A stretch of 32,000 bases of DNA from Methanothermus fervidus DSM 2088 (GCA_000166095.1 CP002278.1:1020001-1052000); one strand, 5' to 3'; positions 1,629-31,433 are shown, counted from the stretch's first letter. Program-made: numbers and translations. Notes: a model not told the origin generated them from the letters alone.

Positions 1629-2621
1629 TCAAAACTCTGCAGATCTCTTTATTTTATCCCAATTCTCAACAAACCATTTATATGTAATCTCAAGTCCTTC
1701 TCTAAATGAAACTTTTGGTTCATAATCTAGCAATTTCTTAGCTTTTTCAATTGATGACAATAATCTCGTTTTGACATCCCATTCTCTCCTTCCAACATAT
1801 ACAACGCCTGCTTCATTCCCTGTTAATTCATTGACAATTTTTGCTAATTCAATAACCTTATGTTCCTTCCCTGAACCCAGATTTATAGCTTCTCCAATTG
1901 CTTTTTTACGAACACCCATTTTTAATAATCCTCTGACTATATCACCAACAAAGGTCCAATCTCTTGTTTCATTTCCAGTGCCTGTTATTGGAAGTGGTTT
2001 TCCTTGCATTGCCCAATAGAAGAAATTAGGTATTACATTACGATATTTTCCTGGAACTTCTCCAGGGCCATAAGCATTGAAAAACCTTGCATTCACAATT
2101 GGCAAATCATATAGATTGTAGAAGTAATTACAATAAAGTTCACCAAGTAATTTAGTTACCTGGTATGGTGTATGTAGTGAAATAGAGACGTCATCTTCTT
2201 TAAATGGAATTTTAGAATCAAGGCCATAAACTCCACATCCAGATGATGCATAAACAAATCTTTCAACTCCAACAAGTTGTGCATACTCTAAAACTTTCAG
2301 TGTTCCCAATCCATTAACTAATAAATCGGTTTCAGGATGATCAACACTATTTTGGTTTGCAAAATGTGCTGCAAGATGGAAAACATAATCTGGTCTTTCT
2401 TTATACACTCTTTTTAATATCTCATCATCAAGTATATCTCCTTCAACAAATACTATGTTTTCATGTTTTGGGATATTCCATTTGTAGGAGGAAGATAAGT
2501 TGTCAAGTATTATTACATTTGCACCTAGCTCAGCTAATTTTCTAGATAAATTACTTCCTATACATCCTGCTCCACCGGTAACTAACACGGTCTTACCATC
2601 ATATTTCTTAAGTTCTGACAT
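1629..2621 (-). CDS. NAD-dependent nucleotide-sugar epimerase/dehydratase/decarboxylase (extended SDR)
   Basis: Rossmann motif VLVTGGAGCIGSNL, catalytic YQVTK (YxxxK), and ARFFNAYGPGE. The likely start is ATG 2621 (MSELKK), preceded by GGAGAGGA and overlapping the upstream TAA as TAATG. The ORF-track start at 2636 is the alternative. Confidence 0.85.
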   Translation of the reverse strand: MSELKKYDGKTVLVTGGAGCIGSNLSRKLAELGANVIILDNLSSSYKWNIPKHENIVFVEGDILDDEILKRVYKERPDYVFHLAAHFANQNSVDHPETDLLVNGLGTLKVLEYAQLVGVERFVYASSGCGVYGLDSKIPFKEDDVSISLHTPYQVTKLLGELYCNYFYNLYDLPIVNARFFNAYGPGEVPGKYRNVIPNFFYWAMQGKPLPITGTGNETRDWTFVGDIVRGLLKMGVRKKAIGEAINLGSGKEHKVIELAKIVNELTGNEAGVVYVGRREWDVKTRLLSSIEKAKKLLDYEPKVSFREGLEITYKWFVENWDKIKRSAEF

Positions 2622-4448: not shown

Positions 4449-6002
4449 TTACATCTCCCTCTTATATATCACTACTTGTCCAATTTTTTTTATTGGATAG
4501 TATCCATGAAGTGGCACAGATTTACTTGTATCACTATGTATATAATAGTATGGAGGTGCTTTATTCATAAGTCGCCAGAACAATTCCTTATCACTTTCAC
4601 TATAAATACGTGTAAAAACGTATTTTTTTAGATACCAAGTAAATGCAGGACCTCTGTCAGATGCTATAATTTTGTATTTATAATCAGGATCATATTTTTT
4701 TAGCCATTCTGCAGCAAGCTTTTCAGATTGAACCCAGGGATCACTTTTGGGCATCTCTATTAAATATATACCTGTGTTAAATATTATCAATGTAAGCAAT
4801 ACTGTCGCTATATTTTTTATTTTCGTAACTTTAGAAAATTTATGTACTCCTAATGTAAATGCATAAGCCAATGCAGGAGTCATTGTAATGAAATAGCGAT
4901 CAACCTTAACAGGATGTAATGTATGTAGAATAAAGAATGATAGAAACCATGTTAAAAATATTAAATCTAAGGCCAATCTTTTATCTTTTAAATTCCTATA
5001 TAGAGATAAAATCATTCCAAACATTATAAATTCGGCTATATAAAATGGAAAATTAAAGTAAATTGATAATGCAAGCACTATTGCTAATATAGTAGGTAAT
5101 AGGTATTTTTTTGGATTTTTAAAGGTAAATGGTATTATTCCAATGATGATGAAGATTAGTATTAAATATGAGATTAAAGTTGGTTCACTGTTAGATGGCC
5201 AAAGCATATCCTCATAATTATGTATGACTTTAGCTGAGATATATTGTGGTATATATTTGAGGTAATAGAGAAAATCTAAATTATAGCCTGGATTTGTAGA
5301 TGAAACTGCACCACCAGTAGAATATTTAATGAAAGGAACTATATTTTTTTGTCCAAATTGTTTTAAAAATTCATAGAATTCATAATAAATAAATACTCCA
5401 ATGCCAATGCTCGCTACTATTTTCTTAATATCAATTCTTTCTTTATATATGTAGAAGGTAAGAATTAGTGGGAAGATTATCAATGCAGATGTATATCTTG
5501 TTAAAAAGGAGAGAACTGCAACAGGGAATACAAAGTATAGATATCTAGAATTCTTTTTAACACCCAGTAATGCAAAATATAAACTCCATAAAGCTAAAGA
5601 TATGGATGGAACATCTAATGCTCCACTAACAGCCCACATAATGATTAAAGTGAAAGTTGCGAAAGCCGTAGCACCTAAAAATGATTCTACTTCACTAAAC
5701 TTCAACTTCAATATTAAATATAGAGCAATCACACCTAAAACATAAAAGATTGCTGACACTATGAACAATGCAGTTTCAGACACATAGCCTAGTTTAAAAA
5801 TTAAAGAAGTTAGATAAGAGAGAAATGGAGGTAAATAAAGAGTATCACTTGCACCTATGCCTGCCATTTTTGCTGCATTGTTTAGATAAAAAAATATATC
5901 CCAATAGTAAACCCCAATCTTACTTTGTATTTGAACGAGTATTATGGCAAGTATTGAGGTAAAGATAAGTAAAGTGAGAAGATACTTATCTACACCTTTC
6001 AT
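4449..6002 (-). CDS. Polytopic membrane glycosyltransferase, GT-C fold (ArnT/PMT_2/GT39-like), paralogue 2
   Basis: 517 aa with about 12 hydrophobic segments. There is a conserved acidic YWD in the first loop (GVYYWDIFFYLNNA), LTRYT and VDRYFITM motifs, and a soluble C-terminal domain of about 100 aa. The start overlaps the upstream paralogue by 17 nt. Confidence 0.7.
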   Translation of the reverse strand: MKGVDKYLLTLLIFTSILAIILVQIQSKIGVYYWDIFFYLNNAAKMAGIGASDTLYLPPFLSYLTSLIFKLGYVSETALFIVSAIFYVLGVIALYLILKLKFSEVESFLGATAFATFTLIIMWAVSGALDVPSISLALWSLYFALLGVKKNSRYLYFVFPVAVLSFLTRYTSALIIFPLILTFYIYKERIDIKKIVASIGIGVFIYYEFYEFLKQFGQKNIVPFIKYSTGGAVSSTNPGYNLDFLYYLKYIPQYISAKVIHNYEDMLWPSNSEPTLISYLILIFIIIGIIPFTFKNPKKYLLPTILAIVLALSIYFNFPFYIAEFIMFGMILSLYRNLKDKRLALDLIFLTWFLSFFILHTLHPVKVDRYFITMTPALAYAFTLGVHKFSKVTKIKNIATVLLTLIIFNTGIYLIEMPKSDPWVQSEKLAAEWLKKYDPDYKYKIIASDRGPAFTWYLKKYVFTRIYSESDKELFWRLMNKAPPYYYIHSDTSKSVPLHGYYPIKKIGQVVIYKREM

Positions 6003-7536
6003 AGATTATGGCTCCTTTAAATTTTTTAATGATTTTAAAACCTTTTAATTCAAAACCTTTTTTTGTCCATATGAAATAAGTTGCATTTGAATTTATAAGC
6101 ATTTTAGATAAATCATCTATACTCTTAAAATCATCTGGATTCCCTCTTTTCACTTCATATTTAAGATACCAACTCATTCCAATCCAATGATCTGAAAATA
6201 TAATCTTCTGTCTATAATTTGGATCATAATTTTTTAACCATGTTGCTGCATTCTCCAAATTTGAATCTAATCTATATGGAGTTATAGTGAAATAGTAACT
6301 TAAGGAAGATATAACAACGCCCACAGCTAGAAAAATTACTAATGCATTGTATTTCGAGGTTGAAATTAAATTTTTTAATTCTGAAATTCCAAGCATCAGA
6401 ATGTATGTTAGTGGAATAACCATCGTTATAAAGTACCTATCAACTTTGAGACATATTAAGCTATGAGCAAACAAATAGGTTAAAAACCATGTGAATACCA
6501 TTAAATCTAGTTTTGGAATTTTAGATTTTGAATAAAGAAATAACATGCAAGGAATTAATAACAATTCAGGTATAAGGTAAATTAGTTGATATTTCAATGA
6601 TAAAATTGTTAAAAAAATTGTTGGGATAATTCCATAAATTGCCCTATGTCTTTTTAAATATAAAGAAATCCCCAAAATTGAAAGAAAAGCTAAAACATAA
6701 CTTATTGGGGATGTGTATCCCATACTTGGATTTAGATATGTACCTAAATACTCTTTTGAAGGAAAGCTACTTATGTATTGTAAAATATGTTTTAGATAGT
6801 AGAAACTATCTAGATTGAATCCTGGATATTCTGGATTAGGTGTGCCTGGAATTCCAATGCCTAAAAAGATGAAAGGATTACCTACTTTTAAATATAAAAA
6901 ATACATGAAGGAAATTAAAATAGGACTCCCAAATGCAGCTCCTATCATCAATTCTTTAATATTTTTAAATCTACTCACAATCAAATATGTTAAAATAGGA
7001 ATAACCAATAGTCCTGCTGTATATCTTGTTAAAAAAGCTAGAAGATAAAGAATTGGTGTAAAAAACAAAAATTTTTTGTTTTTTTCCATACCATAAACAA
7101 ATGTGAAAATTGTCCATACACTTAGCATGGCTCCAGGAACATCCAGTGTTCCAGCAACCATCCATGCAAGCACAACAGACATGCATGAAAGAATTAATGT
7201 TCCTGCAAAACTTTCAATAGTTGTAAATCTAAGTCTTAAAAATAAATATGTTCCTAAAACTCCTAATACATATATTATCCCACATATTACAAACAAAACA
7301 ACTTCAGATACTCCTACAACCTTAAATAACATCCCAGTTAAAAATGGGATTAAAGGAGGAAGATATTGTTTATATCCTGGACTAATTCCAGCAAACATTA
7401 AAGCATTCCAAAGATATATGTACGTATCCCAGTATACTACCCCAAGTTTTACCTGAAGATTTAAAAAATAAATCGTTATTAATGTTATAAAGAGTAATAA
7501 AACTGAAATCATTTTTTTATCTTTTTTTGGATGCAT
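5986..7536 (-). CDS. Polytopic membrane glycosyltransferase, GT-C fold (ArnT/PMT_2/GT39-like), paralogue 1. First gene of the operon.
   Basis: 516 aa, collinear with the 4449-6002 product (GVVYWDTYIYLWNA, LTRYTAGL, VDRYFITM, WLKNYDPNYRQKIIFSD). AGGAGGGA lies 5 nt upstream of ATG 7536. Confidence 0.7.
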   Translation of the reverse strand: MHPKKDKKMISVLLLFITLITIYFLNLQVKLGVVYWDTYIYLWNALMFAGISPGYKQYLPPLIPFLTGMLFKVVGVSEVVLFVICGIIYVLGVLGTYLFLRLRFTTIESFAGTLILSCMSVVLAWMVAGTLDVPGAMLSVWTIFTFVYGMEKNKKFLFFTPILYLLAFLTRYTAGLLVIPILTYLIVSRFKNIKELMIGAAFGSPILISFMYFLYLKVGNPFIFLGIGIPGTPNPEYPGFNLDSFYYLKHILQYISSFPSKEYLGTYLNPSMGYTSPISYVLAFLSILGISLYLKRHRAIYGIIPTIFLTILSLKYQLIYLIPELLLIPCMLFLYSKSKIPKLDLMVFTWFLTYLFAHSLICLKVDRYFITMVIPLTYILMLGISELKNLISTSKYNALVIFLAVGVVISSLSYYFTITPYRLDSNLENAATWLKNYDPNYRQKIIFSDHWIGMSWYLKYEVKRGNPDDFKSIDDLSKMLINSNATYFIWTKKGFELKGFKIIKKFKGAIIYERCR

Positions 7537-8026: not shown

Positions 8027-10294
8027 TTGAAGTTAGTGGGATTAATTCTAGTGAGCTTAGTCATACTAAGTCTCAATGGAGTGAACGCCCAGGCAAATAC
8101 AACTTTACAAAACACAACAACATCATACAACTCCTCTATCAGTGTAAATGCAGTGTGGGTAAAAGCATGGGACATGGAAAAAATGAATTTCACATCGGTG
8201 AAACATAAAAACATAACAGATGTTTTCCTTGAGCAGCAGGCATTTGAAAAACCAAAATTCCAAAACTCCACAAAAGAATTCATAAACAAGGCCAAGAATG
8301 AAAATATAAGAGTCCATGCATGGATAATGTGCTTAAGGCAAAACAATACATGGATAGACCCAGTTAAGCACCCTGAAATCAAAGATGTGCTAGTTCAGAA
8401 GGCAACTAAGTATATAAAGGAATACAACGTTGATGGAATACACCTAGATTACATAAGATATCCAGGAAATGCACCAAAGAATGGTACAGATATAATAGCA
8501 GATATAGTTAAGTATGTATATGAATCAGTGAAGAAGATAAAGCCAAATGCATTAGTTTCAGCAGCAGTTATGCCAGAAATGTGGGCTAACTATATATATG
8601 GCCAAGATTACACAAATATGTCAAGATATCTAGACTTCATTGTTCCAATGGCTTACAAAGGTAACTACAATGAAACAACTGAGTGGATAGGGAAAGTAAC
8701 TAGATATGTTGTTGAGCATTCATTAAAGCCAGTTGTCACAGGAATACTTGCATATAGATCAGATAAAAATCCTGTTAAGTTGCCAGCAAGTGAACTAGTC
8801 CAAGATATCAGGGCTGCATTGGAGAATGGTGCCAGTGGATTTGCTATATTCCACTATGGAATAATAGATAAGAAATTTTTCATGGATAATCCAATTGATG
8901 TCAGTATAAATCAAATAAAGGATGCTGCAGCTAGAGTAACCAAATTTATTGATGTAAACAACAGACTACCTAGATATGTAAAAATTGGTAACCAGGAAAT
9001 ATCCATTGCACAGTACCTATATCTTGTAGCTACTGCACTTAAACAAGGACTTAAAGGAACTGTAACAGTGATTAACGTTGACAATCCTGATAATTCAACA
9101 GTAATGGCTTTAAAAGGTAATATCAAAAAGAACGAGTACCTATCCTTAGCAAAAAGAGTTTCAGACTTTATAGAGTCATATGAAAAAGCACCTAATTTTG
9201 CTACATTTAAAAACCAAAAAATTTCGTTTGAACAATTAGTCGCCTTATTCTCTAAAGCCATAGCTAACAACTTACCTAGTTATATAAGTCTAGAGAAATT
9301 AAATGGCATAAAGTCAGGATATTCAGCATTTAGCGCTGGCAATCCATTAAACTACACCCGTATAGACACCACCATTAACAATCCAATAATCACAGTCTCA
9401 GACATACTTGATGCAGCAGCTAGAGTTAAAAAATTCATAGATACAAACCAAAGATTACCAAAAACAATAAAATTGGCCAACCAACAAATAAAACCTGCAC
9501 AGTTCTTATATTTAGCATGCAAAGTTATTACTGGCGACACATCAGCATTGTCTATACCAAACATGGCTGAAGCCATAAATGGAGACTCATTAACAACAAT
9601 AACATTGCCAAAAGACAAGTATGTTGATGTAGCAAGTAAGGTCATTAAATTCATGGATACAAACGGAAAAGCTCCCAATTTTGCAACAGTAGATGGAACA
9701 AAAATATATTACAAAGACTTAGTTTACATGGCAGCAAAGATACTAAACTTTTACAAAGATAAAAACAGACTACCAAATTATGTAACAATAGATCCAGACA
9801 TTACATCAAGACCTGAAAATACACCATACAGAGGTGAAGATATATCACAATACCTTAGAGCAACAGCAAATTGTCAAGTCAATGACCCAAGAATACAAAG
9901 TCTAGCTAAAGAATTAACAGCAAATGCTGCAAATGACTGGGAAAAAGCATCAAATATATTCAATTGGGTAAGAGATAACATAGATTACAGTTTCTACTAC
10001 AACACAATGAAAGGCGCAGTAGGAACTTTATTAACAAGGAAAGCAAACTGTTGTGACCATGCACATCTCTGTGTAGCATTATTCAGGGCAGCAGGACTCC
10101 CAGCAAGATATGTACATGGATATTGCCAATTTGTATCAGGAAACTGGTATGGACATGTCTGGGCTGAAGTATTAATTAATGGAGTATGGTATGCGGCAGA
10201 TGCAACAGCATTTTGTAATAGTTTAGGCGTTGTGAAAAACTGGAACCCAACTACAGCTACAATATATGGAAGATACGCAAGCCTACCTTTCTAA
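8027..10294 (+). CDS. Secreted three-module pseudomurein-associated protein: glycoside-hydrolase-like TIM barrel, 4 pseudomurein-binding-type repeats, and a C-terminal transglutaminase/Pei-like cysteine protease domain
   Basis: 755 aa with a TTG start. Signal peptide MKLVGLILVSLVILSLNGVNAQA. N-terminal domain carries the motif DGIHLDYIRYP (GHL/DUF4015-type D-Y-I-R-[YF]-P). Repeats read IKDAAARVTKFIDVNNRLPRYV and ILDAAARVKKFIDTNQRLPKTI. The C-terminus has a Cys-His-Asp set (KANCCDHAHL, GHVWAEV, AADAT). The start is uncertain because the SD is 20 nt away; an in-frame ATT at 8012 is 5 nt after the SD. Confidence 0.85.
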   Translation: MKLVGLILVSLVILSLNGVNAQANTTLQNTTTSYNSSISVNAVWVKAWDMEKMNFTSVKHKNITDVFLEQQAFEKPKFQNSTKEFINKAKNENIRVHAWIMCLRQNNTWIDPVKHPEIKDVLVQKATKYIKEYNVDGIHLDYIRYPGNAPKNGTDIIADIVKYVYESVKKIKPNALVSAAVMPEMWANYIYGQDYTNMSRYLDFIVPMAYKGNYNETTEWIGKVTRYVVEHSLKPVVTGILAYRSDKNPVKLPASELVQDIRAALENGASGFAIFHYGIIDKKFFMDNPIDVSINQIKDAAARVTKFIDVNNRLPRYVKIGNQEISIAQYLYLVATALKQGLKGTVTVINVDNPDNSTVMALKGNIKKNEYLSLAKRVSDFIESYEKAPNFATFKNQKISFEQLVALFSKAIANNLPSYISLEKLNGIKSGYSAFSAGNPLNYTRIDTTINNPIITVSDILDAAARVKKFIDTNQRLPKTIKLANQQIKPAQFLYLACKVITGDTSALSIPNMAEAINGDSLTTITLPKDKYVDVASKVIKFMDTNGKAPNFATVDGTKIYYKDLVYMAAKILNFYKDKNRLPNYVTIDPDITSRPENTPYRGEDISQYLRATANCQVNDPRIQSLAKELTANAANDWEKASNIFNWVRDNIDYSFYYNTMKGAVGTLLTRKANCCDHAHLCVALFRAAGLPARYVHGYCQFVSGNWYGHVWAEVLINGVWYAADATAFCNSLGVVKNWNPTTATIYGRYASLPF
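8906..9785 (+). repeat. Intragenic protein-coding repeats: four pseudomurein-binding-type modules arranged A-B-A-B with a period of about 163 aa (about 489 nt)
   Basis: A1 is aligned on D299 (nt 8921) and A2 on D462 (nt 9410). B1 starts at EYLSLAKRVSDFIESYEKAPNFATF (nt 9134) and B2 at KYVDVASKVIKFMDTNGKAPNFATV (nt 9617). The nucleotide copies are clearly diverged. Confidence 0.75.
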
Positions 10295-13654: not shown

Positions 13655-13791
13655 AATAATCACCCAAAAATATTCAAGCAACAACTTTTAAACAAATTTT
13701 AATAATAATTTTTATTTCAACCTTTCAAACTTATAAATGTAAAATAAAAATATTACTAACTATAAATAAAATATTATCATTGCGGGATAGA

Positions 13792-14901
13792 ATGTTAAAG
13801 ATAGGCGTTGTTGTCCATGGCCCACACATCATAGATACAGGATATGCATTAAAAATAATCAAACTTCTAGAAAGGTATGGGAAAGTAAAGGCCGTACTTG
13901 GTGGAACAATGGGTAGAACGGCAGTGTATGATGCACATCTTGAGAATATTATAGATATATCAAAAAAAAGGTTGCCAAGTGAATCTATAGATATGTTAGC
14001 AAAAGAATGTGACTTTGTATTCCTATTAGATTATGGAAAGTCAAAAATTACTGGTCATGCATTTGGATATAAGGTTTTTAAAAAATTAAAAACAAATCCT
14101 AAATTAATACAAATTGAAAGACCTGGAGAAAAGGATGGCACCATCATCGTATGGAACAAAAAAGCTGAAAATTTTGCAAAAAAAATTGCTAAAAAATTAA
14201 AATTAAAGTTAGTTAAAAAAGAAGACGTTGAAAAGGAGATAAAAGGTAAAATAATCTATGAAAAAAATGGAAAAAAATATAGGAGAGTATTGGGGGTTTC
14301 AAAAGGAGAAAACATATTTGTTAATGGGATCGTCGTTGGAAAAGCAAAATCTGATGAAGTGACTTTAGTTGCTAAAAATGGCATCATCATTGATATAATA
14401 GGTGGGAAATTGAAAAAACATGGAGTAGAAAAATTAGGGAAAGTAGATTTAGAAAAAGCAATAATAAAAACAGGTCTTTTAAGAAGATCAGAAGTAAAAG
14501 CACGAAAAGTTATAAAACGAAAATCTAAAAAAGAATTTAATGTAGGATTTTTAGATCACGCTGCTGAAGATGTATACCAATTAAAAAATTGTGATGTTGT
14601 TGTAACAATTGGAGATGATACTACATTAGTAGCATCTGATATTTTATATAGGTTTGATGTCCCTGTTATTGGAATAACTGATGGAGATGTTGATAAAGTT
14701 GTTAAAAAAGGTTTTAAAAATCCAGGATCCATGATTATAGAAGTTGAAAAAGGATGGGATGACAAGATAGGTAAGATAATCTTGTCAAAAATATTTAAAA
14801 ACAAAAAATACATTAAAATTAAAAATATTAATAAGTTAAAAAGAAAAATTCAAGAAATTATCAACAAGATGAACATAAAATATAATATAAAAGAATTTTG
14901 A
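13792..14901 (+). CDS. Conserved archaeal protein of unknown function. First gene of the methanogenesis-marker operon.
   Basis: 369 aa from ATG 13792 (MLKIGVVVHGP), or 373 aa from TTG 13780. Two globular parts are joined by a Lys-rich linker (KKAENFAKKIAKKLKLKLVKKEDVEKEIKGK). The C-terminal part has VVVTIGDDTTLVASD and PVIGITDGDVD. The gene ends 9 nt before mmp2. I cannot place it in a named family with confidence; it may be DUF2117-like. Confidence 0.6.
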   Translation: MLKIGVVVHGPHIIDTGYALKIIKLLERYGKVKAVLGGTMGRTAVYDAHLENIIDISKKRLPSESIDMLAKECDFVFLLDYGKSKITGHAFGYKVFKKLKTNPKLIQIERPGEKDGTIIVWNKKAENFAKKIAKKLKLKLVKKEDVEKEIKGKIIYEKNGKKYRRVLGVSKGENIFVNGIVVGKAKSDEVTLVAKNGIIIDIIGGKLKKHGVEKLGKVDLEKAIIKTGLLRRSEVKARKVIKRKSKKEFNVGFLDHAAEDVYQLKNCDVVVTIGDDTTLVASDILYRFDVPVIGITDGDVDKVVKKGFKNPGSMIIEVEKGWDDKIGKIILSKIFKNKKYIKIKNINKLKRKIQEIINKMNIKYNIKEF

Positions 14902-14910
14902 GGTGTAGAA

Positions 14911-15888
14911 TTGGACCTAAATAACCTTGTAAAATCTATCAAAAATTTTGAAGGAGTAACACGAAAAAAATCAATAAGCAAGTTACTTTCAATATTAGGA
15001 AACTCTGATAAGATCTCAGGCCATACATACTTAAGTTATGGAGACGATGCAGCAGCAATAAAACTTGGAAATGGAAAGCTATTATTGTTAGCTGCAGATG
15101 GAATATGGGACAAACTTATGAAAGCAGATCCTTATTGGGCAGGATATTGTTCAGTGTTAGTTAATGTCAATGACATTGCTGCTATGGGTGGAGAACCACT
15201 AGCAATGGTAAATGTTCTGTCTATTAAAGACGAAAACACTTGTTTTAAAGTAATGGAAGGTGTAAGAGAAGGAGCAAAAAAATTTGGAGTCCCAATGGTT
15301 GGTGGTCATTTACATCCTGCAACACCATACAATGTATTAGATGTTTCAATAGTTGGTATAGTATCTGAAGATTCTGTAATTACAAGTCATAATGCAAAAA
15401 TTGGAGATAAAATAATCATTGCTATAGATCTTGATGGAAACATCCATCCAAACTTTCCATTAGCATGGGACACTACAACACATAAGAATTCAAAATTAGT
15501 GAGAGCTCAAATAAAAGCAATGAAAAAAATAGCCTCTAAAAAGCTTGTAAATGCTGGGAAAGACATTAGCAATCCTGGAACGATTGGAACATTGGGAATG
15601 ATGCTAGAAGCATCCAATACAGGGGCAATTGTTGAATTAGATAAAATACCTAGAAATGAATCTGTTGAATGGGAAAGATGGTTAAAACTTTATCCTGGTT
15701 CTGGATTTGTATTTAGTTGTCCAGAAGAATGTGTTGAAGAATGCATAGAAATCTTAAGTAAAGTAAATTTAACAGCTAATGTTGTTGGCGAAATAATCCC
15801 TGACAGAAAACTGTATCTTAAATACAAAAATACCAAAAAAATCGTTTTTGATTTTAGGAAAGAATATATAGTAGGTCTTAGATCTTAA
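14911..15888 (+). CDS. Methanogenesis marker protein 2 (PurM/ThiL/HypE/SelD-superfamily ATP-utilising enzyme)
   Basis: 325 aa with a TTG start, 5 nt after GAGGTG. It has the AIR-synthase-related signature SYGDDAAAIKLGNGKLLLLAADGIW and sits in mmp operon context. Confidence 0.75.
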   Translation: MDLNNLVKSIKNFEGVTRKKSISKLLSILGNSDKISGHTYLSYGDDAAAIKLGNGKLLLLAADGIWDKLMKADPYWAGYCSVLVNVNDIAAMGGEPLAMVNVLSIKDENTCFKVMEGVREGAKKFGVPMVGGHLHPATPYNVLDVSIVGIVSEDSVITSHNAKIGDKIIIAIDLDGNIHPNFPLAWDTTTHKNSKLVRAQIKAMKKIASKKLVNAGKDISNPGTIGTLGMMLEASNTGAIVELDKIPRNESVEWERWLKLYPGSGFVFSCPEECVEECIEILSKVNLTANVVGEIIPDRKLYLKYKNTKKIVFDFRKEYIVGLRS

Positions 15889-15963
15889 AATATATTATGA
15901 AAGAGTTAATTAGGGATAATGTTAATATCTATTTCTCAAAATTTGTGAGCAGAGGGATATAAT

Positions 15964-17496
15964 TTGCTAGTTGAAGTTAATGGGAAAAAAGTGGATTTAC
16001 CGCCAGGAGCTACAGTGAAAGATGCTATAGAGAAAACAAATGCTCCTTATAAAAAAGGATGTATCATAGGGATAGTAAAGGCTGCCAAAGAAATTGAAAA
16101 ACATGTAGACAGATATAGAATAAAAACAAATAAAGGTAGTATCATTGTAGAATTAGAGAATGTGCCTGAATTAACAAGAGTTTGGAAAGAAAAATATAAA
16201 AATTTTATTGGGCAGAAAATTAGATGGACATCCTCAGAAGAAGTAGCAATTGGACCTATTAAAACTGAGTTAAAACCTACAAAAGAAGAATTTGAATATA
16301 AGGAAGGAGAAGTAATTTTAAGTCTATCAGGGTTTAGTCCTGAAACAACACATGTGATATTTTGTAGAGAAGATCATTCTTCTGTATATGCTGTACCACC
16401 ATATAATAGAGGTGTGTTTGCTAGAGTTATAGGCGGAAGAAGAACCTTGCACTTGTTGGAAAATGAAGATAAAATAATATCAATTGAACCTATTATTGAG
16501 CGTGAAAGTATTGTGAAAAGTGCAACCACAACAGACGTTAACACAAAATTAGAAGAAGGAAATAGAGTTTTTACTTATGTTGAAGTTCATCCAGTTCCAG
16601 AATCACCAAAATCTGTAGAACATTTTTTAATAATGACTGAAAACAATAAGATGAAAGTTGATTATGAATCAAATTCATTTGTAGGTTTTTATGCCTTTGA
16701 AGGTATAGGTAGAGGTGTTGAATTAATTAAGGAAAGGAAAAGAGGATCTGTAACACTTAGGAATAGAGGTAAAGGAATTGGACGTATATATATTTACAGA
16801 GAGGATAGAGTATCAACGCCTTCTCATAACTTAGTAGGTTATGTGAATAAAGGAATGGAATTGATAGACATAGCAAAAAAAGGAGATTATATAACTGTTG
16901 TGTCTAAACCAGGCAGAATATCAACAATTTCAATGACTCAAAAAGAAGCAGAGAAATTCTTAGATGGTTATGAAATTAAACAAGTAAGAGATGGTGTAAA
17001 AGACGACAATGCAATAATTGTAAAGCAAGAACCAAGATATACTATGGAAATTCTTAAAAAAGGTGAAGTTAGGACTTTTGGTGTCGAACCTGAAAAAATT
17101 GTTGAATTAGAGGTATATGATGACAAGGCACCGAAATCTAGTTGGTATTTCAGAAGAATAACAGGACTCATTGATAACCCAATTGGAAAATTAAAAGTTC
17201 ATTTCTCATTTCCTGGCATGAATTTAATAATGTTTGAAGGAAATACTAAAGAATCTAAAGGACTAGTTCCAGAAAACACTCCAAAAGATTGTGTTAAGGC
17301 AGGAGAAATTGGAATAACCAACATGTCTAGGAAGCATGTAGGTTTAATTGGTGTAAGATTTGAGGACAACGAAGAATTTGGACCCACAGGTGAACCTTTT
17401 AGTGGCACTAATATAGTAGGAAAAATAACTAAAGGATTTAATAATTTAGAAAAACTTAAAGATGGAGACATTATATATGTCAAAGAAAGAAAATAA
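15964..17496 (+). CDS. Methanogenesis marker protein 3 (UPF0288 family)
   Basis: 510 aa with a TTG start after GAGGGA. Size and position (directly after mmp2, before mmp6) match the conserved marker cluster. The N-terminal 40 aa look like a ThiS-like beta-grasp. Confidence 0.65.
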
Positions 17497-17902
17497 AATT
17501 ACGAAAATGATAATATTAGGGCCAGATGCTAGATTTAACCCCCAAGAACTTGTGCGTAGGATACATATGTTAGGATTACCCATTACAATTAAAGAAACTT
17601 GTTATGGTGCTTTAATTCATGGAGAAAAAGAATACATAAAAAAGGCTGAAAAAGAAATCAGGAAATTCGATATATACAACATTTTTATTAAAGAAAGAGG
17701 ATTTCCACCAGGAGATCCAAGAAGATGCAGAGCTCACAGGGGAGGAGCTAGAGAAGGTTACCACCAACTTGAAAAAGAGTTTAGAGCATTAAAATACGTA
17801 AGTGAAGCTCTGAAACACCCACGCAAAGTTAGTTTAGAAGAACCTAAAAAGTTGCCAGTAGAAGTTTTTCGCGATATAGTTAAAAAAATGGTGGAAAAAT
17901 GA
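17477..17902 (+). CDS. Methanogenesis marker protein 6
   Basis: About 141 aa from ATG 17477, with GGAGA 9 nt upstream. Alternative starts are at 17462 and 17507. It has the conserved-looking motif [23 protein letters not shown]. Its stop overlaps the next start as ATGA. Confidence 0.6.
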
Positions 17903-18249
17903 AAATAACTAATTCATCTGATGCAGAAGAATTAGAAAATTTAGCTTTAGCAATTCATGAACTGGTAAATAGATTACCATTAACAATGAGAAGCAAAGAA
18001 AAAAGAGGCCTGCGAATTGAAAATGGGAAGGTAATAGATTACAACTATACAGGACCTGTGTTGGAAAAAGTACTAAAAACCGGTAAAATATGTAAAGAAA
18101 CACCAAATGAGGGTCCATATAAAGGTATACCTGTTGTTGTAGTTCCTCTAAAAGAAAACGGAGAAGTCATTGCAGCAATTGGAGTAGTTGACATAACTAA
18201 AGGCGTTTATAGTGACGTAGTTGAGATATCCCGCCGTCCTAAACTTTAG
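17899..18249 (+). CDS. Small conserved archaeal protein (DUF2111-like) embedded in the marker operon
   Basis: 116 aa, in an ATGA overlap with mmp6. It is followed by an AGGAGGA SD for the next gene. The family name comes from memory of methanogen operon annotation and is unverified. Confidence 0.5.
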
Positions 18250-18260
18250 GAGGAAAAATA

Positions 18261-18707
18261 ATGAAAGTTTTAATTTTTCCACCAAATTCACTTATACTGG
18301 CAGATCTAGTTGAAAGAAAAGGCCATGAACCATTAATTTTACAAAAAGAAATAAGACATAAAGTTACGGATCCAGAAATAGATTCTCCTCCCCTAAATAT
18401 TAGACCGGAGGATGCATTGAAAGGTTTAAAATATGCAGCTATAGAAGTTCCATCAGGTGTTAGAGGTAGAATGTCTATTTTAGGACCACTGATAGAAAAA
18501 GCTGAGGCAGCTATTATTATGGAAGAAGCACCATTTGCCTTTGGTTGTGTAGGATGTGCAAGAACTAATGAACTCTGCATTCACCTCATTAAGAAAAAAG
18601 GAGTGCCTATCTTAGAAGTAAAATATCCTGAAACTAAAGAAGAAGCAATAGATGTAGTAAACAAAATAAATACATTTTTAGACAAATTGGAGGCCAAAAA
18701 TGGTTAA
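18261..18707 (+). CDS. Methanogenesis marker protein 5
   Basis: 148 aa. The N-terminus [25 protein letters not shown] and the Cys motif [13 protein letters not shown] match my recollection of this family. AGGAGGA lies 6 nt upstream of the ATG. Confidence 0.6.
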
Positions 18708-19926
18708 AATAGCCCAAATATCTTGTGGTACAGAGTATAGTGGTATTCAAAAAGAAATTGAAAGAGCGGCTGAAACTTTTGGAGCTGAGATAGTAATTCC
18801 CGAAACAGATTTAGACTATATAAATGATGCATACGAAAGATTTGGATTTAAATGTGCCAGTTCATCATTAAAATTAATGATAGCTAGAGCAATGTCTGTT
18901 GTTGAGGGTAAAACAAAAGCAGACGCTGTATTCATAGCCACATGTTTTAGATGTGCAGAAGGGGCTATTGTAAGAAATGAAATAAGAAAATTTATACAAG
19001 AAAACACGAATTTACCAGTTGTAACATATTCATTTACGGAAAGAACAAAAGCAGAAGAGCTATTTATAAGAATGGAAGCATTGTCAACAGTAGTTTCCAG
19101 AAAAAGCCTACTTGCAAGAGAAAAACAAGAAGGAATCACTTTAGGCATCGATTCTGGTTCAACAACAACTAAAGCTGTTGTAATGGAAGATAATGAGGTC
19201 ATAGGTACTGGTTGGGTTCCAACAACCGATGTTATAGAATCAGCTGAAAAAGCTGTAGATATGGCATTAAAAGATGCTGGATATACAATGAAAAAAATAG
19301 AAGGAATCGGAGTCACTGGTTATGGAAGGTTAACACTTGGAAAGCATTTTAATGCTGACTTAGTACAGGAAGAGTTAAGTGTAAACTCAAAAGGTGCCGT
19401 GTTTTTAGCAGATAGACAGAGAGGTGAAGCTACAGTAATAGACATTGGTGGAATGGATAATAAAGTTATAACTGTAAATAATGGAATTCCTGACAATTTT
19501 ACTATGGGAGGAATATGTGCAGGAGCTTCAGGAAGATTTCTTGAAATTACAGCACGAAGATTGGGAGTTGATATTGAAGATCTTGGAGATTTAGCTGTTA
19601 AAGGTAACTACCGGAATGTTCCTATGGATAGTTACTGTATAGTGTTTGGAATACAGGATTTAGTTACTTCTTTAGCAGCCGGAGCAAAAAAAGAAGATGT
19701 TGCTGCAGCAGCATGTCATTCAGTTGCAGAACAAGTTTATGAACAACAATTACAAGAAGTTGATATCAGAGAACCAATTATAGAGGTGGGTGGTACATCC
19801 TTAATTAAAGGATTAGTAGAGGCTGTAAGTGATATTCTTGGTGGTGCAGAGGTAATAGTACCTAATTATTCACAATATATAGGGGCTGTAGGTTCAGCAT
19901 TGTTAGTTTCAGGAATTATTAAATAA
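18700..19926 (+). CDS. Methanogenesis marker protein 15 (BadF/BadG/BcrA/BcrD-HgdC-type ATPase with an N-terminal extension of about 140 aa)
   Basis: 408 aa. ASKHA phosphate-1 motif [14 protein letters not shown]. HgdC-like cluster-ligand contexts [11 protein letters not shown] and YCIVFG. The gene overlaps mmp5 by 8 nt. Confidence 0.75.
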
Positions 19927-20820
19927 TTATTTCAAAACATCATACAACCTTAATTTATACTCTCCTAATTTTCCACCATAATTTCCTGCAGAAATTCTTA
20001 AGACACCATCAACAGTAGTTGCAGCTTCTATGCCAACTTTCATTGCTTCCTTAATTTTATCTTCTTTCAATCCATTTATAACAATTTCAGGGATATATTT
20101 AACACCTTCAGGCACCTTAGAATCTTTTCCAAGTCTAGATTTTAATGATGGACAATAAGGATGATTTGTTGTTGGTCCTATCCAAGGATAATTTGTTTCT
20201 GGTTTTGACGCAGCTGAACATACATCAAAAGGTGTAATAACATAATCTATTTTATTTATAGCCTTTATAATTTTTTCACCTGCTTCTAAAACAGCTTCTT
20301 TGGTTTCACACATATACCAAAAATTTGCACCCATTATTCCTTTTTGATAACCAATTTTCCTCTCAATTTTGAAGTCAGGCACTGTAATCGGTACAACAAT
20401 CATTTTTCTTCCATATAACTCTTCTTCCCATTCATATCCATCTCCACAATGTCCAACATATTTCATAGTGTCGATATGTCCATCAGCATCTAATTCTAAA
20501 TTAAATAATGTTGTGAATGGTTTAACTAAAATATCTTGTCTAATCCTATATGATAACTCTACTTCAAATTTTTTTAAATCTTTTTTTCCAAACCAAAATT
20601 GTAAAATGGCACCAGGTCTTCCATCAGGAGTCTTAGACTTATCTACAAATTTTTCAACTCCTCCTTCGATTCTTCCTATTACAGCTCCAGGCGTTGATGT
20701 TGCATCATAAGCTGCTTTCTTTAAAGTATTTTTATCTTCTGCTGTAATCAATACCCTAGCACAAACTCCATAAAAAGCCTCACAAAAAGTATCTTCAATA
20801 AAAACATCGTTGATATACAC
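19927..20820 (-). CDS. Formylmethanofuran:tetrahydromethanopterin formyltransferase homologue (divergent Ftr paralogue, FtrII/EhaS-like)
   Basis: 297 aa, the length of Ftr. Ftr-like blocks include [24 protein letters not shown] and [16 protein letters not shown] start 20820 overlaps the upstream TAG as TAGTG, with AGGAGGT 8 nt upstream. Confidence 0.75.
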
Positions 20821-26799: not shown

Positions 26800-27208
26800 A
26801 CACTTCTATGGAACCTCTAGTAGAGTATTATCCTAAACAGCTACTTCAACAGTATTCACATGCTAATATATAATTCCCAACTTATTTTCCATAGCTTAGA
26901 CTCTTGAATTTACTTCCTAAATCAGTTATTATAGGCAAAGAATTTGCTAAGATATCAACATTTTGGCAAATCATGATTTTACTATAAAATACTTTTCAGT
27001 TCTCATCTTCACGCTTTGTATGGAGACTTCTTGCCGATAGAGTTTAAAATTAAAAATAATAATCTTTATATATTAGATTTATTTAACATTGTTTTAACAA
27101 AACAACTATAATAAAATTTTTTTTGAACAATGTATATCATGGATAACAAATTTTAATAATCAAAAAAGTAATTTTTTTAATGTTAATTTTTTTAAGGAGG
27201 TACTTAGA

Positions 27209-28126
27209 TTGTGTGGAATAGCAGGGATCGTATGTAAAGATAAAAAAGTGCATAATGTAGGTAAATTGATGACTAAAATGCTTCAAACACTACAACATAG
27301 AGGCCCTGATTCTGCAGGTTTTGCAATATATGGTGGATTAAAATTGAAAAAAAATGAATATTTATTAAACATTGAAGTAAAAGAAAAACCAGGATTACTA
27401 GATAGTGTCAAAAAAGTTATAGAGAGTGTCACAAAAATAAAAAAAGAAAAAATAATTCCTTCAGTTGAAGAATATGTTATTTATCGTTGTATAATCACCC
27501 TAAACTCATATTCAGAATTAAAACCATTAATAGTTGAGATAGATAAAATAGAAGGTGCAACTGTACTTAGTGGAAGCCATTCATTTGAGATGATAAAAGA
27601 TGTTGGGTCTGTAGTTGAAATTGCTGATCGCTATGATACATGGTCAAAGAAAGGTACTCATGCCATAGGTCATACAAGGTTTTCAACAGAGAGTATTGTA
27701 GATAGGTATCATGCACACCCATTCCAAAGTTATATAGTCCCTGATATTACAGTTGTTCATAATGGTCAAATAACAAATTATTGGAAAATAAGAGATCCTT
27801 TAGAAAGGAAAGGTCACATATTTGAAACAACAAACGATACAGAATGTATAGTTCATTATATAGCCGATAAACTTGCAGATGGATATTCTCTTGAAGAAGC
27901 ATTAGAAGAATCTGTTAAAGACATGGATGGTCCATTTTCTTATATTATAGCCACTCCAACAGGTATAGGAATTGCAAAAGATAAACTTGGCTTACGTCCT
28001 GGAGTAATGGCAGAAGATGACAATGTTTTTGCAATAGCATCTGAAGAAGTAGCATTAAGAGAAGTTGTAGATACTAGGTGTGTAGAACAAATAAACCCTG
28101 GTGAAGTAAGGGTTTATGAATTTTAA
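27209..28126 (+). CDS. Glutamate synthase, class II (Ntn) glutamine amidotransferase subunit (archaeal GltB domain 1)
   Basis: TTG start 8 nt after AGGAGGT, followed by the nucleophile Cys (M)CGIAGIV. Motifs GHTRFSTES, HNGQITN and NDTE. Confidence 0.85.
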   Translation: MCGIAGIVCKDKKVHNVGKLMTKMLQTLQHRGPDSAGFAIYGGLKLKKNEYLLNIEVKEKPGLLDSVKKVIESVTKIKKEKIIPSVEEYVIYRCIITLNSYSELKPLIVEIDKIEGATVLSGSHSFEMIKDVGSVVEIADRYDTWSKKGTHAIGHTRFSTESIVDRYHAHPFQSYIVPDITVVHNGQITNYWKIRDPLERKGHIFETTNDTECIVHYIADKLADGYSLEEALEESVKDMDGPFSYIIATPTGIGIAKDKLGLRPGVMAEDDNVFAIASEEVALREVVDTRCVEQINPGEVRVYEF

Positions 28127-28148: not shown

Positions 28149-28838
28149 ATGAAAGAAGTAGTTATTGATGCTGAATCAAAAACCCCTAGAGAGGTCAATA
28201 GTTCTTTAAAAAAATTAGCAGAAAAATATGATAGGATAATTATCGAAAATCCTAATGCAATGCATTATCTTGCAGCAGGGCTTACTAAAAAAGTTGAAGT
28301 TATTATTAATGGATCTGCAGGGTACTTTGTAGGAACAATGATTCATGGCCCAAAAATAGAAGTAAAAGGAAATGCTGGCTGGTTCCCTGCAGATAATATG
28401 ACTAAAGGCAAAGTTATAATTCATGGATCAGCTGGAGACGGAGTTGGGCAGGGAATATATGGAGGTACAGTGATTGTAAAAGGAGATGCAGGGTCAAGAA
28501 CTGGAGAGATAATGAAAAATGGGACAATAATAATTGGTGGCAACTCTGGATTTATGACAGGTCTTTTTATGATGGGTGGACGCATTGTTGTTTTAGGAGA
28601 TTTAGGAAAAGATGCTGGAGAGTCAATAATAAGAGGAAAAATTTATGTTAGAGGGGAAATACAAAGTTTAGGGAAAAATGCAAGAGTTGAAGAGATAAAC
28701 GTCAAAGACGAAGAAGAATTAAATAAAATATTGAATGAAAATGGATTCAACATAAAAAAATCAGAATATGATGAATTTAAAAAAATTGTTCCAAAAAGTA
28801 AAAGACCATTTTATGGTAAACAATCGGAGGAAGGATAA
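28149..28838 (+). CDS. Glutamate synthase GXGXG-repeat subunit (archaeal GltB domain 3, FwdC-like beta-helix)
   Basis: 229 aa of repeated G-x-x-G-x-x-x-G turns (INGSAGYFVG, VKGNAGWF, IHGSAGDGVG, VKGDAGSRTG, IGGNSGFMTG). AAGGTGA lies upstream of the ATG. Confidence 0.85.
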   Translation: MKEVVIDAESKTPREVNSSLKKLAEKYDRIIIENPNAMHYLAAGLTKKVEVIINGSAGYFVGTMIHGPKIEVKGNAGWFPADNMTKGKVIIHGSAGDGVGQGIYGGTVIVKGDAGSRTGEIMKNGTIIIGGNSGFMTGLFMMGGRIVVLGDLGKDAGESIIRGKIYVRGEIQSLGKNARVEEINVKDEEELNKILNENGFNIKKSEYDEFKKIVPKSKRPFYGKQSEEG

Positions 28839-28840
28839 AA

Positions 28841-29917
28841 ATGGGTGGTGAAGATAAGATTGCGATGGTAGGCACTCCCTGTCAAATAATAGCAGCAACA
28901 CTTATGGAAAAATATTCATCACAACTTAAAAGGAATTTCCCGATTGATATAAAGATAGGTTTGTTTTGTATGGAAAATTTTTCTTATGAATATCTCAAAA
29001 AACTGTTACATTCATATGGAATAAAATTTCGAGATGTAGTTTCATGTAGAATAGAAGGAAGCAATGCATACTTTCATCTCATAAATAAAGACGTTGTTTC
29101 CATACCTCTCAGTACTTTAAGAAAAAGTATGCGTAAAAGCTGTAAAATTTGTATGGATTTTACATCTGAACTAGCTGATATATCAGTAGGTTCTGTAGGT
29201 TCTCCAAAAGGATGGTCAACAGTAATCATAAGATCTGAAAAAGGTTTAAAATTAGTTGAAAAAGCTAAAAAAGCTAAATACATTGAAACAAAAATGTTAG
29301 ATGCAGACAGATTAAATTTAATAGAAAAGTTAGCTAAAATTAAAAAAAATAAAAATCTTGAAGAAATTAAAAATAGGGAAAGAGTGGCAAGACCTGTTAT
29401 GTATTGGAGAATCATGCCTGAAGAAATTTTTCTTAATGAAGTAGAAAATTATCAATTTAAGGATTTAAAGGGAGACGTTATAGATGTAGGCGCTTGTGTA
29501 TTATGTGGAGCCTGTTTCTTTTCCTGTCCTGAAGATATCATAAAAATTGAAGATAGGAAACCAGAAATAAACGGTAAATGTCCTCCAGGTTGCAATGCTT
29601 GTTATATAGCATGTCCAAGATCATATGTGCCTGATTGTATAGTAAATCATGAAGATGCATATTCGGCATTGGGAAATTATATAGAAATAATATCTGCTAG
29701 ATCTCCGTTTTTTAAAGGACAAGATGGTGGTGTAGTAACAGCATTATTAGCTTGTGCATTGTCTGAAAAAATAGTAAACAAAGTATTAATAGTAGATAAG
29801 GATCCTGAAAAGCCATGGAAACCTTTACCAATCCTCACAGATAAAATTGACGATGTTGTAAAGGCATCTGGTACTAAATATTCTGTATGTCCTATATTCA
29901 AAGCATTAAAAGAATAA
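28841..29917 (+). CDS. FrhB/FdhB-family F420-binding iron-sulfur flavoprotein with domain order C-domain, 2x[4Fe-4S], N-domain (circularly permuted)
   Basis: The N-terminal half carries FrhB C-domain motifs (VGTPCQI, IGLFCMENFSY, LADISVGSVGSPKGWSTVIIRS). The middle has CVLCGACFFSCP and CPPGCNACYIACP. The C-terminal 80 aa carry FrhB N-domain motifs (IISARSPFFKGQDGGVVTALL, ASGTKYSVCP). Confidence 0.8.
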   Translation: MGGEDKIAMVGTPCQIIAATLMEKYSSQLKRNFPIDIKIGLFCMENFSYEYLKKLLHSYGIKFRDVVSCRIEGSNAYFHLINKDVVSIPLSTLRKSMRKSCKICMDFTSELADISVGSVGSPKGWSTVIIRSEKGLKLVEKAKKAKYIETKMLDADRLNLIEKLAKIKKNKNLEEIKNRERVARPVMYWRIMPEEIFLNEVENYQFKDLKGDVIDVGACVLCGACFFSCPEDIIKIEDRKPEINGKCPPGCNACYIACPRSYVPDCIVNHEDAYSALGNYIEIISARSPFFKGQDGGVVTALLACALSEKIVNKVLIVDKDPEKPWKPLPILTDKIDDVVKASGTKYSVCPIFKALKE

Positions 29918-29933
29918 ATAAGGAGATAATTAT

Positions 29934-31433
29934 ATGCCATTCAAAGTTGAAAGAAAAGAAAACATATGTAAAAGAGATTTTGACAGGCCTGGTTGTTGTT
30001 GGTATCTTTGTGATAATAGAGATGAAAATTTATGTAAAGATTGTTTTTCATGCTATAACAACTGCCCTCACAATGTTTATGAAATTATTAATGGTGAACC
30101 ATTCCCAATATGGCATGAAAGATGTGTTGGATGTCGTATATGTGAAGAAATGTGTCCTAATAATGCAATAGAAGTTCACGCAGTACCTGAAGACAGAAGG
30201 AATGTCTGGTCATATGCTGATTTAGTGGAAATACAGAGAAAAGCTGAAGAAGGAACATATAAAGTTAGAGGATGTGGAGCAACAAGAAAAGTTCCTACCT
30301 TTGATGATCTTGTAATTGTACCTGCACAAGTTTCAAGGCCTCCTATAGATAAATACAGAGAACCATGTAATACCAAAGTTGTTTTAGGAGATAGGTATGC
30401 TGAAAAACCTTTAGAATTAGATACTCCAATAATGATAGCCGCAATGTCCTTTGGGGCAATTAGTAAGGAAGCCAAAATAGCATTGGCAATGGGTGCAACA
30501 TTGGCAGGTACAGCCACAAACACAGGCGAAGGAGGCATGTTACCTGAAGAAAGAAAATATGCTTCAAAACTTATAGCACAGTATGCATCAGGGCGTTTTG
30601 GTGTATCAGCTGAATATCTCAACAATGCAGATGCTATAGAAATTAAAATAGGTCAGGGTGCAAAAGCAGGAATGGGAGGACATTTATTAGGAGAAAAGGT
30701 TGTAGCTGAAGTAGCAGAGATAAGAATGATACCAGAAGGTACGGATGCCCTTAGTCCTGCAAGACATATGGATATAGTTGGACCTGAAGATCTCAGCATG
30801 AAAATTTCACAACTACGAGAAATAACAGACTGGAAGGTGCCAATAATAGTTAAATTCACATCAGGGCGTGTAAGTGACGATGTAAAAATTGCTGCGAAGG
30901 CAGGAGCAGATATTGTCGTCGTTGATGGTATGCAAGGAGGTACTGGAGCAGGGCCAGACGTTGTAACAGAACATGCTGGAATTCCAACAATAGCAGCTAT
31001 AGTAGAAGCAGATGAAGCTTTAAAAGAAATTAATTTAAGAGATGAAGTTAGTTTAGTTGCAGCTGGAGGTATAAGAAGCGGAGCAGATGTTGCAAAAGCT
31101 ATAGCATTGGGTGCAGATGCTGTATATATTGGAACAGCTGCATTAGTAGCTATAGGTTGTAGAGTTTGTCAAATGTGTCACACAGGCAAATGTAGAAAAG
31201 GAATTGCAACTCAAGATCCTATATTAAGAAGACGTCTAGATTATGTAGAAGGAGGAAAAAGAGTTGCAAGATATATTGAAGCAATGACAGAAGAACTCAA
31301 AATGTTAACTCAACAAGCTGGAAATACTGACGTTAGAAAATTAGAAAAAGATGATCTTAGAGCATTGAATTTAGAGGCAGCTGCGTTAACTGGTGTTAAA
31401 ATGGCTGGAATGGATGCACCACTCAAAATTTAG
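29934..31433 (+). CDS. gltB: Glutamate synthase FMN/Fe-S subunit (archaeal GltB domain 2) with an N-terminal 2x[4Fe-4S] ferredoxin domain
   Basis: 499 aa. Ferredoxin motifs CKDCFSCYNNCP and CVGCRICEEMCP. FMN-domain blocks are TNTGEGG, EIKIGQGAKAGMGGHL, VVDGMQGGTGA and the GGIRSG region. C-terminal Cys cluster is GCRVCQMCHTGKC. AAGGAGAT lies upstream of the ATG. Confidence 0.85.
   Translation: MPFKVERKENICKRDFDRPGCCWYLCDNRDENLCKDCFSCYNNCPHNVYEIINGEPFPIWHERCVGCRICEEMCPNNAIEVHAVPEDRRNVWSYADLVEIQRKAEEGTYKVRGCGATRKVPTFDDLVIVPAQVSRPPIDKYREPCNTKVVLGDRYAEKPLELDTPIMIAAMSFGAISKEAKIALAMGATLAGTATNTGEGGMLPEERKYASKLIAQYASGRFGVSAEYLNNADAIEIKIGQGAKAGMGGHLLGEKVVAEVAEIRMIPEGTDALSPARHMDIVGPEDLSMKISQLREITDWKVPIIVKFTSGRVSDDVKIAAKAGADIVVVDGMQGGTGAGPDVVTEHAGIPTIAAIVEADEALKEINLRDEVSLVAAGGIRSGADVAKAIALGADAVYIGTAALVAIGCRVCQMCHTGKCRKGIATQDPILRRRLDYVEGGKRVARYIEAMTEELKMLTQQAGNTDVRKLEKDDLRALNLEAAALTGVKMAGMDAPLKI

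Follow-up and report, generated by a model that had tools for sequence, protein, structure and literature searches.

The window considered here is a stretch of 32,000 nucleotides (nt) from Methanothermus fervidus DSM 2088 (CP002278.1:1020001-1052000), in which all positions are counted from the first letter. It carries on its plus strand a glutamate synthase operon of four genes, and the third of these encodes a protein of 358 amino acids (aa) of the FrhB/FdhB family in which the domains are circularly permuted, the C-domain standing first, a ferredoxin (Fd) domain with two [4Fe-4S] motifs in the middle and the N-domain last (C-Fd-N; Table 1). The operon is tightly packed, with intergenic gaps of 22, 2 and 16 nt between the genes for the amidotransferase, GXGXG, FrhB-like and synthase subunits. 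It is preceded by an AT-rich region of 409 nt (26800-27208). The amidotransferase gene has an AAGGAGG ribosome-binding site upstream and TTG as its start codon, and the FrhB-like open reading frame (ORF), which runs from an ATG at 28841 to a TAA at 29915-29917, has a GGAGG at 28826-28830, 11 nt upstream of the ATG. No NrpR-type nitrogen operator (GGAA-N6-TTCC) was found upstream of the operon, the sole match in the window (1990-2003) being at chance level.

Table 1. Genes of the glutamate synthase operon and segments of its FrhB-like subunit (FAD, flavin adenine dinucleotide; FMN, flavin mononucleotide)
Feature	Position	Strand	Basis or remarks
Glutamine amidotransferase subunit, class II, 305 aa, starting M-C-G-I-A-G	27209..28126	+	Pfam GATase_6 8.5e-18, GATase_7 3.8e-17
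GXGXG subunit, 229 aa, counterpart of the C-terminal beta-helix domain of bacterial GltB	28149..28838	+	Pfam GXGXG 2.5e-31; stop TAA at 28836-28838
FrhB-like subunit, 358 aa, circularly permuted (C-domain, then 2x[4Fe-4S] ferredoxin, then N-domain)	28841..29917	+	Pfam, PDB search, doubling test
FrhB_FdhB C-domain, aa 5-154	28853..29302	+	PF04432; carries the intrinsic [4Fe-4S] cysteines C14, C43, C101, C104 and the GLFCMENF FAD loop
Former C-terminal helical tail with short linker, aa 155-211	29303..29473	+	Old C-terminus joined to old N-terminus here
Ferredoxin domain, two [4Fe-4S] motifs	29474..29641	+	Fer4-type Pfam matches at aa 212-267; eight invariant cysteines
FrhB_FdhB N-domain, aa 277-357, with QDGG and GTKY FAD-binding loops	29669..29911	+	PF04422; aligned to FrhB 9r51_B residues 4-86
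Synthase subunit, 499 aa: N-terminal 2x[4Fe-4S] ferredoxin domain, then FMN-binding glutamate synthase domain	29934..31433	+	Pfam Glu_synthase 8.9e-140; Fer4_21 at aa 30-80

Circular permutation of the FrhB-like subunit

The order of domains proposed in an earlier reading of the sequence only is the order that Pfam assigns. The FrhB_FdhB_C model (PF04432) matches with E 1.2e-47 and 162 bits against a gathering cutoff of 23.3, and the FrhB_FdhB_N model (PF04422) matches aa 290-357 with E 1.7e-21 and 76.6 bits against a cutoff of 22. Both halves are therefore family members by the cutoffs of their models, and they stand in the order C, Fd, N and not in the N-before-C order conventional for the FrhB/FdhB family; the change is probably a topological variant rather than a loss of fold. 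Between the two halves, Fer4 dicluster models score under the Pfam gathering thresholds, yet all eight cysteines are invariant among the 48 homologues on which the conservation analysis and the AlphaFold2 model are based. The two motifs read C219-x2-C222-x2-C225-x3-C229-P and C247-x3-C251-x2-C254-x3-C258-P. The atypical Cx3C first spacing that had been ascribed to the second motif is genuine (C247-x3-C251), with its four cysteines invariant across the family, and the motif strings quoted along with it are all found in the translation. The ferredoxin region is similar to the ferredoxin domain at the C-terminus of FrhG (TIGR03294, 1e-9; FrhG chains also appear in the PDB search). Two narrower identities were tried and rejected, namely the hydrogenase subunit FrhB (TIGR03289, score 197.9 against a cutoff of 331.5) and FpoF (NF040616, 144 against 475); the gene context differs too in either case.

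Alignment to solved structures displays the permutation directly. In a sequence search of the PDB, residues 207-354 of the query correspond to residues 10-165 of chain 8riu_B, and residues 3-197 to residues 174-366 of the same chain, which has 370 aa in the order Fd-N-C. Likewise, residues 277-357 correspond to residues 4-86 of FrhB (9r51_B) and residues 3-188 to residues 93-282, where that chain of 282 aa ends. Every conventional relative in this search, Fsr among them, aligns as two swapped segments. The boundaries of these segments place the new termini within the six residues that link the N- and C-domains in FrhB, and the old termini are joined via the ferredoxin domain.

The standard sequence test for circular permutation is alignment to head-to-tail dimers of conventional proteins (the doubling test). 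It was applied with 11 conventional Fd-N-C proteins, comprising nine cluster representatives and two gltB-linked proteins from Methanosarcina and Methanothermococcus. With all 11 the best alignment is a single collinear high-scoring segment pair (HSP), which begins at query residues 3-7, ends at residues 356-358 and spans the dimer junction. The top example, P0249x2, gives 206 bits (E 9e-65, residues 5-358), while the halves taken singly score 118 and 100 bits. The permutation had been described as clean, and the word is justified because just ~9 query residues (198-206) separate the segment matching the end of 8riu_B from the segment matching its start, a near-seamless junction. The suggested origin by tandem duplication and trimming fits the doubling result and this junction, although it is not proven by them.

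One premise of the sequence-only reading needs correction. Fd-N-C was taken there as the conventional order; this holds for Fsr and 8riu_B, whereas FdhB has been described as N-C-Fd and not Fd-N-C (PMC3448663). The C-Fd-N order is a rotation of either arrangement.

The predicted fold agrees with the alignments. The AlphaFold2 model has a mean predicted local distance difference test score (pLDDT) of 84 and a predicted TM-score (pTM) of 0.87, with the two halves and the ferredoxin domain confidently placed by the prediction as one body; a long helix occupies aa 155-180, within the segment of helical tail and linker. A Foldseek search of the PDB with this model returned only FrhB-family chains as top matches (9r52_B, 4ci0_C, 6qii_B, 8riu_B, 8rja_E and Fsr). 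On FrhB chains, ~175-190 columns superpose at a root-mean-square deviation (rmsd) of ~2 A with TMq 0.45-0.48, a figure that covers the C-domain only, as is expected of a sequential aligner on a permuted protein. The model thus supports, as a prediction, that the permuted chain keeps the complete fold.

The residues that would hold the cofactors are also retained. Among the 48 homologues the intrinsic-cluster cysteines C14, C43, C101 and C104 are invariant, as are the eight cysteines of the ferredoxin domain, including those of the second motif with its unusual C-x3-C spacing. The FAD loops are invariant as well, namely G293, QDGG (294-297), GTKY (344-347) and GLFCMENF (40-47), except for F42 in the last, which is at least 90% conserved. 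In the FrhB structure the FAD is surrounded by loops 23-30, 71-77 and 131-138, and Cys134 is a ligand (PMC3930138); the conserved cysteines and the QDGG, GTKY and GLFCMENF elements correspond to these loops and to Cys134. The protein of the window therefore has the cysteine ligands and FAD loops characteristic of the FrhB/FdhB family, and it is a putative FAD-binding protein with putative F420 redox activity, as far as motifs and model can suggest.

Distribution of permuted and conventional forms

The permuted form is general among the closest relatives of the window protein. The 120 closest database proteins all cover 97-100% of the query, and in every one the C-domain comes before the N-domain. 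To look at gene context, the surroundings of synthase-subunit homologues were surveyed in 80 genome loci, and the ORFs there were scanned with profiles of the three modules built from the alignment of homologues. In Methanobacterium, Methanobrevibacter and Methanosphaera the operon reads amidotransferase (GAT), GXGXG, C-Fd-N, FMN-synthase (FMN), as it does in every surveyed Methanobacteriales locus that carries an FrhB-like gene, where the contig extends far enough upstream. In the complete permuted genes of Methanobacteriales loci, no more than ~25 residues of the stop-to-stop frame precede the C-domain match, and the frame follows directly on the GXGXG gene.

Not every FrhB homologue linked to gltB is permuted. 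This had been raised as a question for a survey, and the 80 loci rule out universal permutation, since Methanosarcina, Methanomicrobiales and Methanothermococcus carry conventional Fd-N-C proteins. The operon in which these occur reads GAT, FMN, GXGXG, Fd-N-C, and was found in Methanosarcina, Methanoregula, Methanolinea, Methanocalculus, Methanospirillaceae and Methanothermococcus. The Methanosarcina protein aligns to the window protein as two swapped HSPs, query residues 7-168 with its residues 178-341 and 205-358 with 12-168. The two gene orders also bear on the earlier remark that the permutation places the N-domain terminus next to the following Fd-FMN gene. The gene is indeed adjacent, but no mechanistic weight attaches to this: 16 nt separate the two cistrons, and in the other operon type the conventional protein serves with its genes in another order. 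A third, bacterial arrangement was seen in an Anaerolineales metagenome-assembled genome (L026, 5013-6206), in which a conventional Fd-N-C gene (398-aa frame) lies directly upstream of the GXGXG and FMN-synthase genes.

There are also operons with no FrhB-like gene. Four loci, L011, L015, L025 (Methanobrevibacter-type) and L018, whose operons are closely related to that of the window, lack it and retain the ferredoxin domain of the synthase. The FrhB-less operon (GAT, GXGXG, FMN) includes that of Methanobrevibacter acididurans. Such loci fit the idea that the FrhB-like protein is an add-on electron-input module.

Within the operon of the window, the subunits differ greatly in conservation: identity to Methanothermobacter proteins is 89-91% for the synthase subunit but only 61-63% for the FrhB-like subunit. 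The nearest database relative of the latter is only 70% identical, one metagenomic match of 99% aside.

Permuted modules are not confined to glutamate synthase operons. An exhaustive search of representatives of 50%-identity clusters gave 2607 relatives at E <= 0.001, and 16 of the best 150 of these have the C-Fd-N order, at identities down to 31-33%. On two metagenomic archaeal contigs (L083, 6001-7125; L086, 6001-7155) the permuted gene lies directly upstream of genes for the gamma, delta, alpha and beta subunits of pyruvate:ferredoxin oxidoreductase (PFOR), and L086 has in addition two conventional Fd-N-C genes within 4 kb. Chadwick et al. (2022) described FrhB paralogues clustered with PFOR, carbon monoxide dehydrogenase (CODH) and glutamate synthase genes in anaerobic methanotrophic (ANME) archaea and did not discuss domain order; the genes of L083 and L086 may be their PFOR-linked 'FrhB6' paralogue. 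In L084 (6001-7113) and L087 (6001-7095) the permuted gene belongs to a conserved cluster with genes for a molybdopterin oxidoreductase, two ferredoxin-like proteins (one NapH-like) and NapD, which continues with a multihaem cytochrome and a COX1-family protein. The composition of this cluster suggests an F420-linked Nap-type reductase. The permuted gene of L085 adjoins Mtd, and those of L081 and L082 have unrelated surroundings.

Neighbour-joining trees of these proteins, with 100 bootstraps each, were built from the N+C core (258 columns) and from Fd+N+C (323 columns). The trees are crude and their deep nodes weakly supported. The Methanobacteriales glutamate synthase clade has 98% support, and the permuted proteins do not form one clade: they fall into five groups on the N+C core and three on Fd+N+C, with two to six groups across bootstraps, and their monophyly was recovered in 0 of 100 bootstraps in both runs. 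Permutation may have occurred repeatedly, or permuted ancestors may have given rise to conventional forms again; the trees are not taken as evidence for several origins. It is conceivable, if on balance doubtful, that the C-Fd-N order is no peculiarity of glutamate synthase but the mark of a wide and ancient class of FrhB-like modules, as yet undescribed, that came to be joined to several enzymes of ferredoxin type. This spread into other enzyme contexts is the only part of the present observations that might repay further work.

Public annotation is uninformative for permuted FrhB-like proteins. NCBI names them only 'Coenzyme F420 hydrogenase/dehydrogenase, beta subunit C-terminal domain', with no NCBIfam model at cutoff. 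Phylogenies of the FrhB family made from ordinary alignments will misalign the permuted proteins unless the permutation is undone first.

In the remainder of the window, GC content (~31%) and gene content mark a member of the Methanobacteriales, and the presence of pseudomurein-binding repeats, Ftr and methanogenesis-marker genes points to a methanogen host. A protein of 755 aa (8027-10294) combines four pseudomurein-binding repeats with a transglutaminase-like core and a weak glycosyl hydrolase 18-like region, and is of the cell-wall-associated type typical of Methanobacteriales. A cluster of methanogenesis-marker type (13780-19926) holds DUF2117, AIR synthase-related, DUF2102, DUF2112 and BcrAD/BadFG-type ATPase genes, along with an ORF of 510 aa (15964-17496) that has no Pfam match. 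It is followed by Ftr (19927-20820) on the opposite strand.

Putative role as an F420H2-oxidising input module

The FrhB-like protein is likely to be the F420H2-oxidising electron-input subunit of a four-subunit archaeal glutamate synthase. The chain begins at the old linker between the N- and C-domains and continues with the C-domain, where the intrinsic [4Fe-4S] cluster and one half of the FAD pocket would lie. The old C-terminal helix leads into the 2x[4Fe-4S] ferredoxin domain, and the chain ends in the N-domain, where QDGG and GTKY would supply the other parts of the pocket. The two halves are predicted to assemble into a normal FrhB body with FAD held between the N- and C-domains. F420H2 would pass a hydride to FAD, and single electrons would then travel from FAD through the intrinsic cluster to the two clusters of the ferredoxin domain (three [4Fe-4S] clusters in all), and onward through the two clusters at the N-terminus of the synthase to the synthase FMN. 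The FMN would reduce 2-iminoglutarate to glutamate, the imine arising from 2-oxoglutarate and from ammonia that the amidotransferase subunit delivers through a channel. The ferredoxin domain is continuous with the N-domain, as in Fd-N-C proteins. Through the permutation it is also tethered covalently to the old C-terminal helix, as a second link.

Several points weigh against this assignment. The FrhB-like subunit appears dispensable for the core chemistry, because the loci L011, L015, L018 and L025 operate without it. F420-dependent glutamate synthase activity is putative for this protein and for all its orthologues, and the enzyme was still termed putative in 2024 and 2026. The NCBIfam models for FrhB and FpoF score under their equivalog cutoffs for the window protein. 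HCAR, a member of the FrhB family with another partner, is among the Foldseek structural matches, and a Thermococcus FrhAGB is reported (PMC13333549) to reduce rubredoxin.

All but the first of these points also favour a different donor, in which case the protein would be the input module of the glutamate synthase and its electrons would come from, for example, ferredoxin or some other flavin or deazaflavin-independent partner; HCAR shows that the FrhB family includes enzymes that do not use F420. This alternative is nevertheless unlikely. In structural alignment the C-domain shows 41-42% identity to bona fide F420-reducing FrhB, all the FAD-pocket loops are invariant and the host lineage is an F420-rich methanogen. 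Moreover, a synthase with its own ferredoxin domain needs no flavoprotein adaptor to receive electrons from ferredoxin, and the FrhB-less relatives keep that domain.

It could also be supposed that the protein is an independent F420 oxidoreductase that is merely co-transcribed and stands outside the glutamate synthase complex, as permuted genes are also found alone or in other contexts (L081, L082, L085) and some relatives have the operon without an FrhB-like gene. This is very unlikely in view of the strictly conserved position between the GXGXG and synthase genes in Methanobacterium, Methanothermobacter, Methanobrevibacter and Methanosphaera, with spacers of 2 and 16 nt, and of the separate recruitment of conventional FrhB-like genes to the other type of glutamate synthase operon. 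In addition, the solved complexes of F420-reducing CODH and formylmethanofuran dehydrogenase have Fd-FrhB subunits that dock via the ferredoxin domain.

The chance is negligible that the permutation itself is an artefact, with the true order conventional and an upstream N-domain hidden by a frameshift or misassembly, or two gene fragments fused; sequencing errors do occur in this gene, as the split copy of locus L003 illustrates, but the explanation is effectively refuted by the complete 229-aa GXGXG ORF that ends 2 nt before the ATG, by the same start in homologues, by the same length and order in all of the 120 closest homologues, which stem from numerous separate assemblies with complete genomes among them, and by the same gene in the finished genome of Methanothermobacter marburgensis (CP001710). 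The missed upstream N-domain that the sequence-only reading had named as fatal to its own proposal does not exist. In L003 (5850-6996, a Methanobacteriaceae metagenome-assembled genome) the permuted gene is divided into two overlapping ORFs, 5850-6314 and 6286-6996, probably by a frameshift or assembly error.

Comparison with known systems

A putative F420H2-oxidising subunit of glutamate synthase has precedents in the literature, to which the window protein can be related. Kaster et al. (2011) described an F420-dependent glutamate synthase locus (MTBMA_c06440 / MTH193) whose 'subunit 4' resembles FrhB and was once annotated as FrhB, with the qualification that the activity 'remains to be proven'. 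Susanti and Mukhopadhyay (2012) distinguished two putative enzymes, FGltS(I), in which the F420 subunit is of the Fsr-N type (Fd-N-C), and FGltS(II), of the Methanothermobacter type; the window protein is the counterpart of FGltS(II)-alpha. For the M. marburgensis 'GS' protein (ADL58239), Mills et al. (2013; PMC3591093, Fig. 9 legend) stated that the N-terminal part aligns to the C-terminus of FrhB and the C-terminal part to its N-terminus, and this swapped alignment is reproduced by the window protein (residues 3-188 with FrhB 93-282, residues 277-357 with FrhB 4-86). Their legend describes a permutation in substance without using the term; in the literature searched, neither 'circular permutation' nor 'permuted' was found applied to the FrhB family or to the F420 glutamate synthase, and that legend was the only statement of the kind. 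The permutation is hence already known, and the gene of the window is a further member of a known family.

The M. marburgensis gene (locus L088) is taken to be the gene of the papers cited, judging from genome, position and properties. Its product is the orthologue of the window protein (61% identity, collinear over 353 aa, E 1e-172), and the M. marburgensis genome has the same operon, with products of 305, 229, 351 and 499 aa. The orthologues share the C-Fd-N order, the cysteine and FAD motifs and the four-gene operon, of which three of the four products are equal in length. They differ in that the window protein is seven residues longer and comes from a different, AT-rich member of the Methanobacteriales.

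Solved relatives show how such modules may be attached to their partners. The best solved-structure match by sequence is 8riu_B (E 8e-54), the zeta subunit of the F420-reducing CO dehydrogenase of Ca. Ethanoperedens. Like the window protein, this chain and the F420H2-oxidase half of Fsr (7np8, 7npa) are built of these three modules with the same set of cofactors, and in both the ferredoxin domain serves as anchor to the partner and as electron relay; they differ in the order Fd-N-C and in their partner enzymes. FrhB (4ci0_C, 9r51_B, 6qgr_B) has the same FAD/[4Fe-4S] body, and its C-domain superposes at ~2 A with 34-42% identity. It differs in consisting of N-C only, with the ferredoxin domain on the separate subunit FrhG. 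In the solved relatives, the ferredoxin domain sits where the C-terminal part of FrhG does and docks the module onto the partner.

A presumed functional parallel with another topology is FGltS(I)-alpha of Methanosarcina, Methanomicrobiales and Methanococcales. This protein is likewise of the FrhB family with a 2x[4Fe-4S] ferredoxin domain, is likewise encoded in a glutamate synthase operon, and presumably shares the role of F420H2-oxidising input module. It differs from the window protein in both its Fd-N-C order and its place at the end of the operon after GXGXG. The two operon types, one with the permuted and the other with the conventional form, make a natural pair for considering how a ferredoxin domain docks an F420 module onto its partner.

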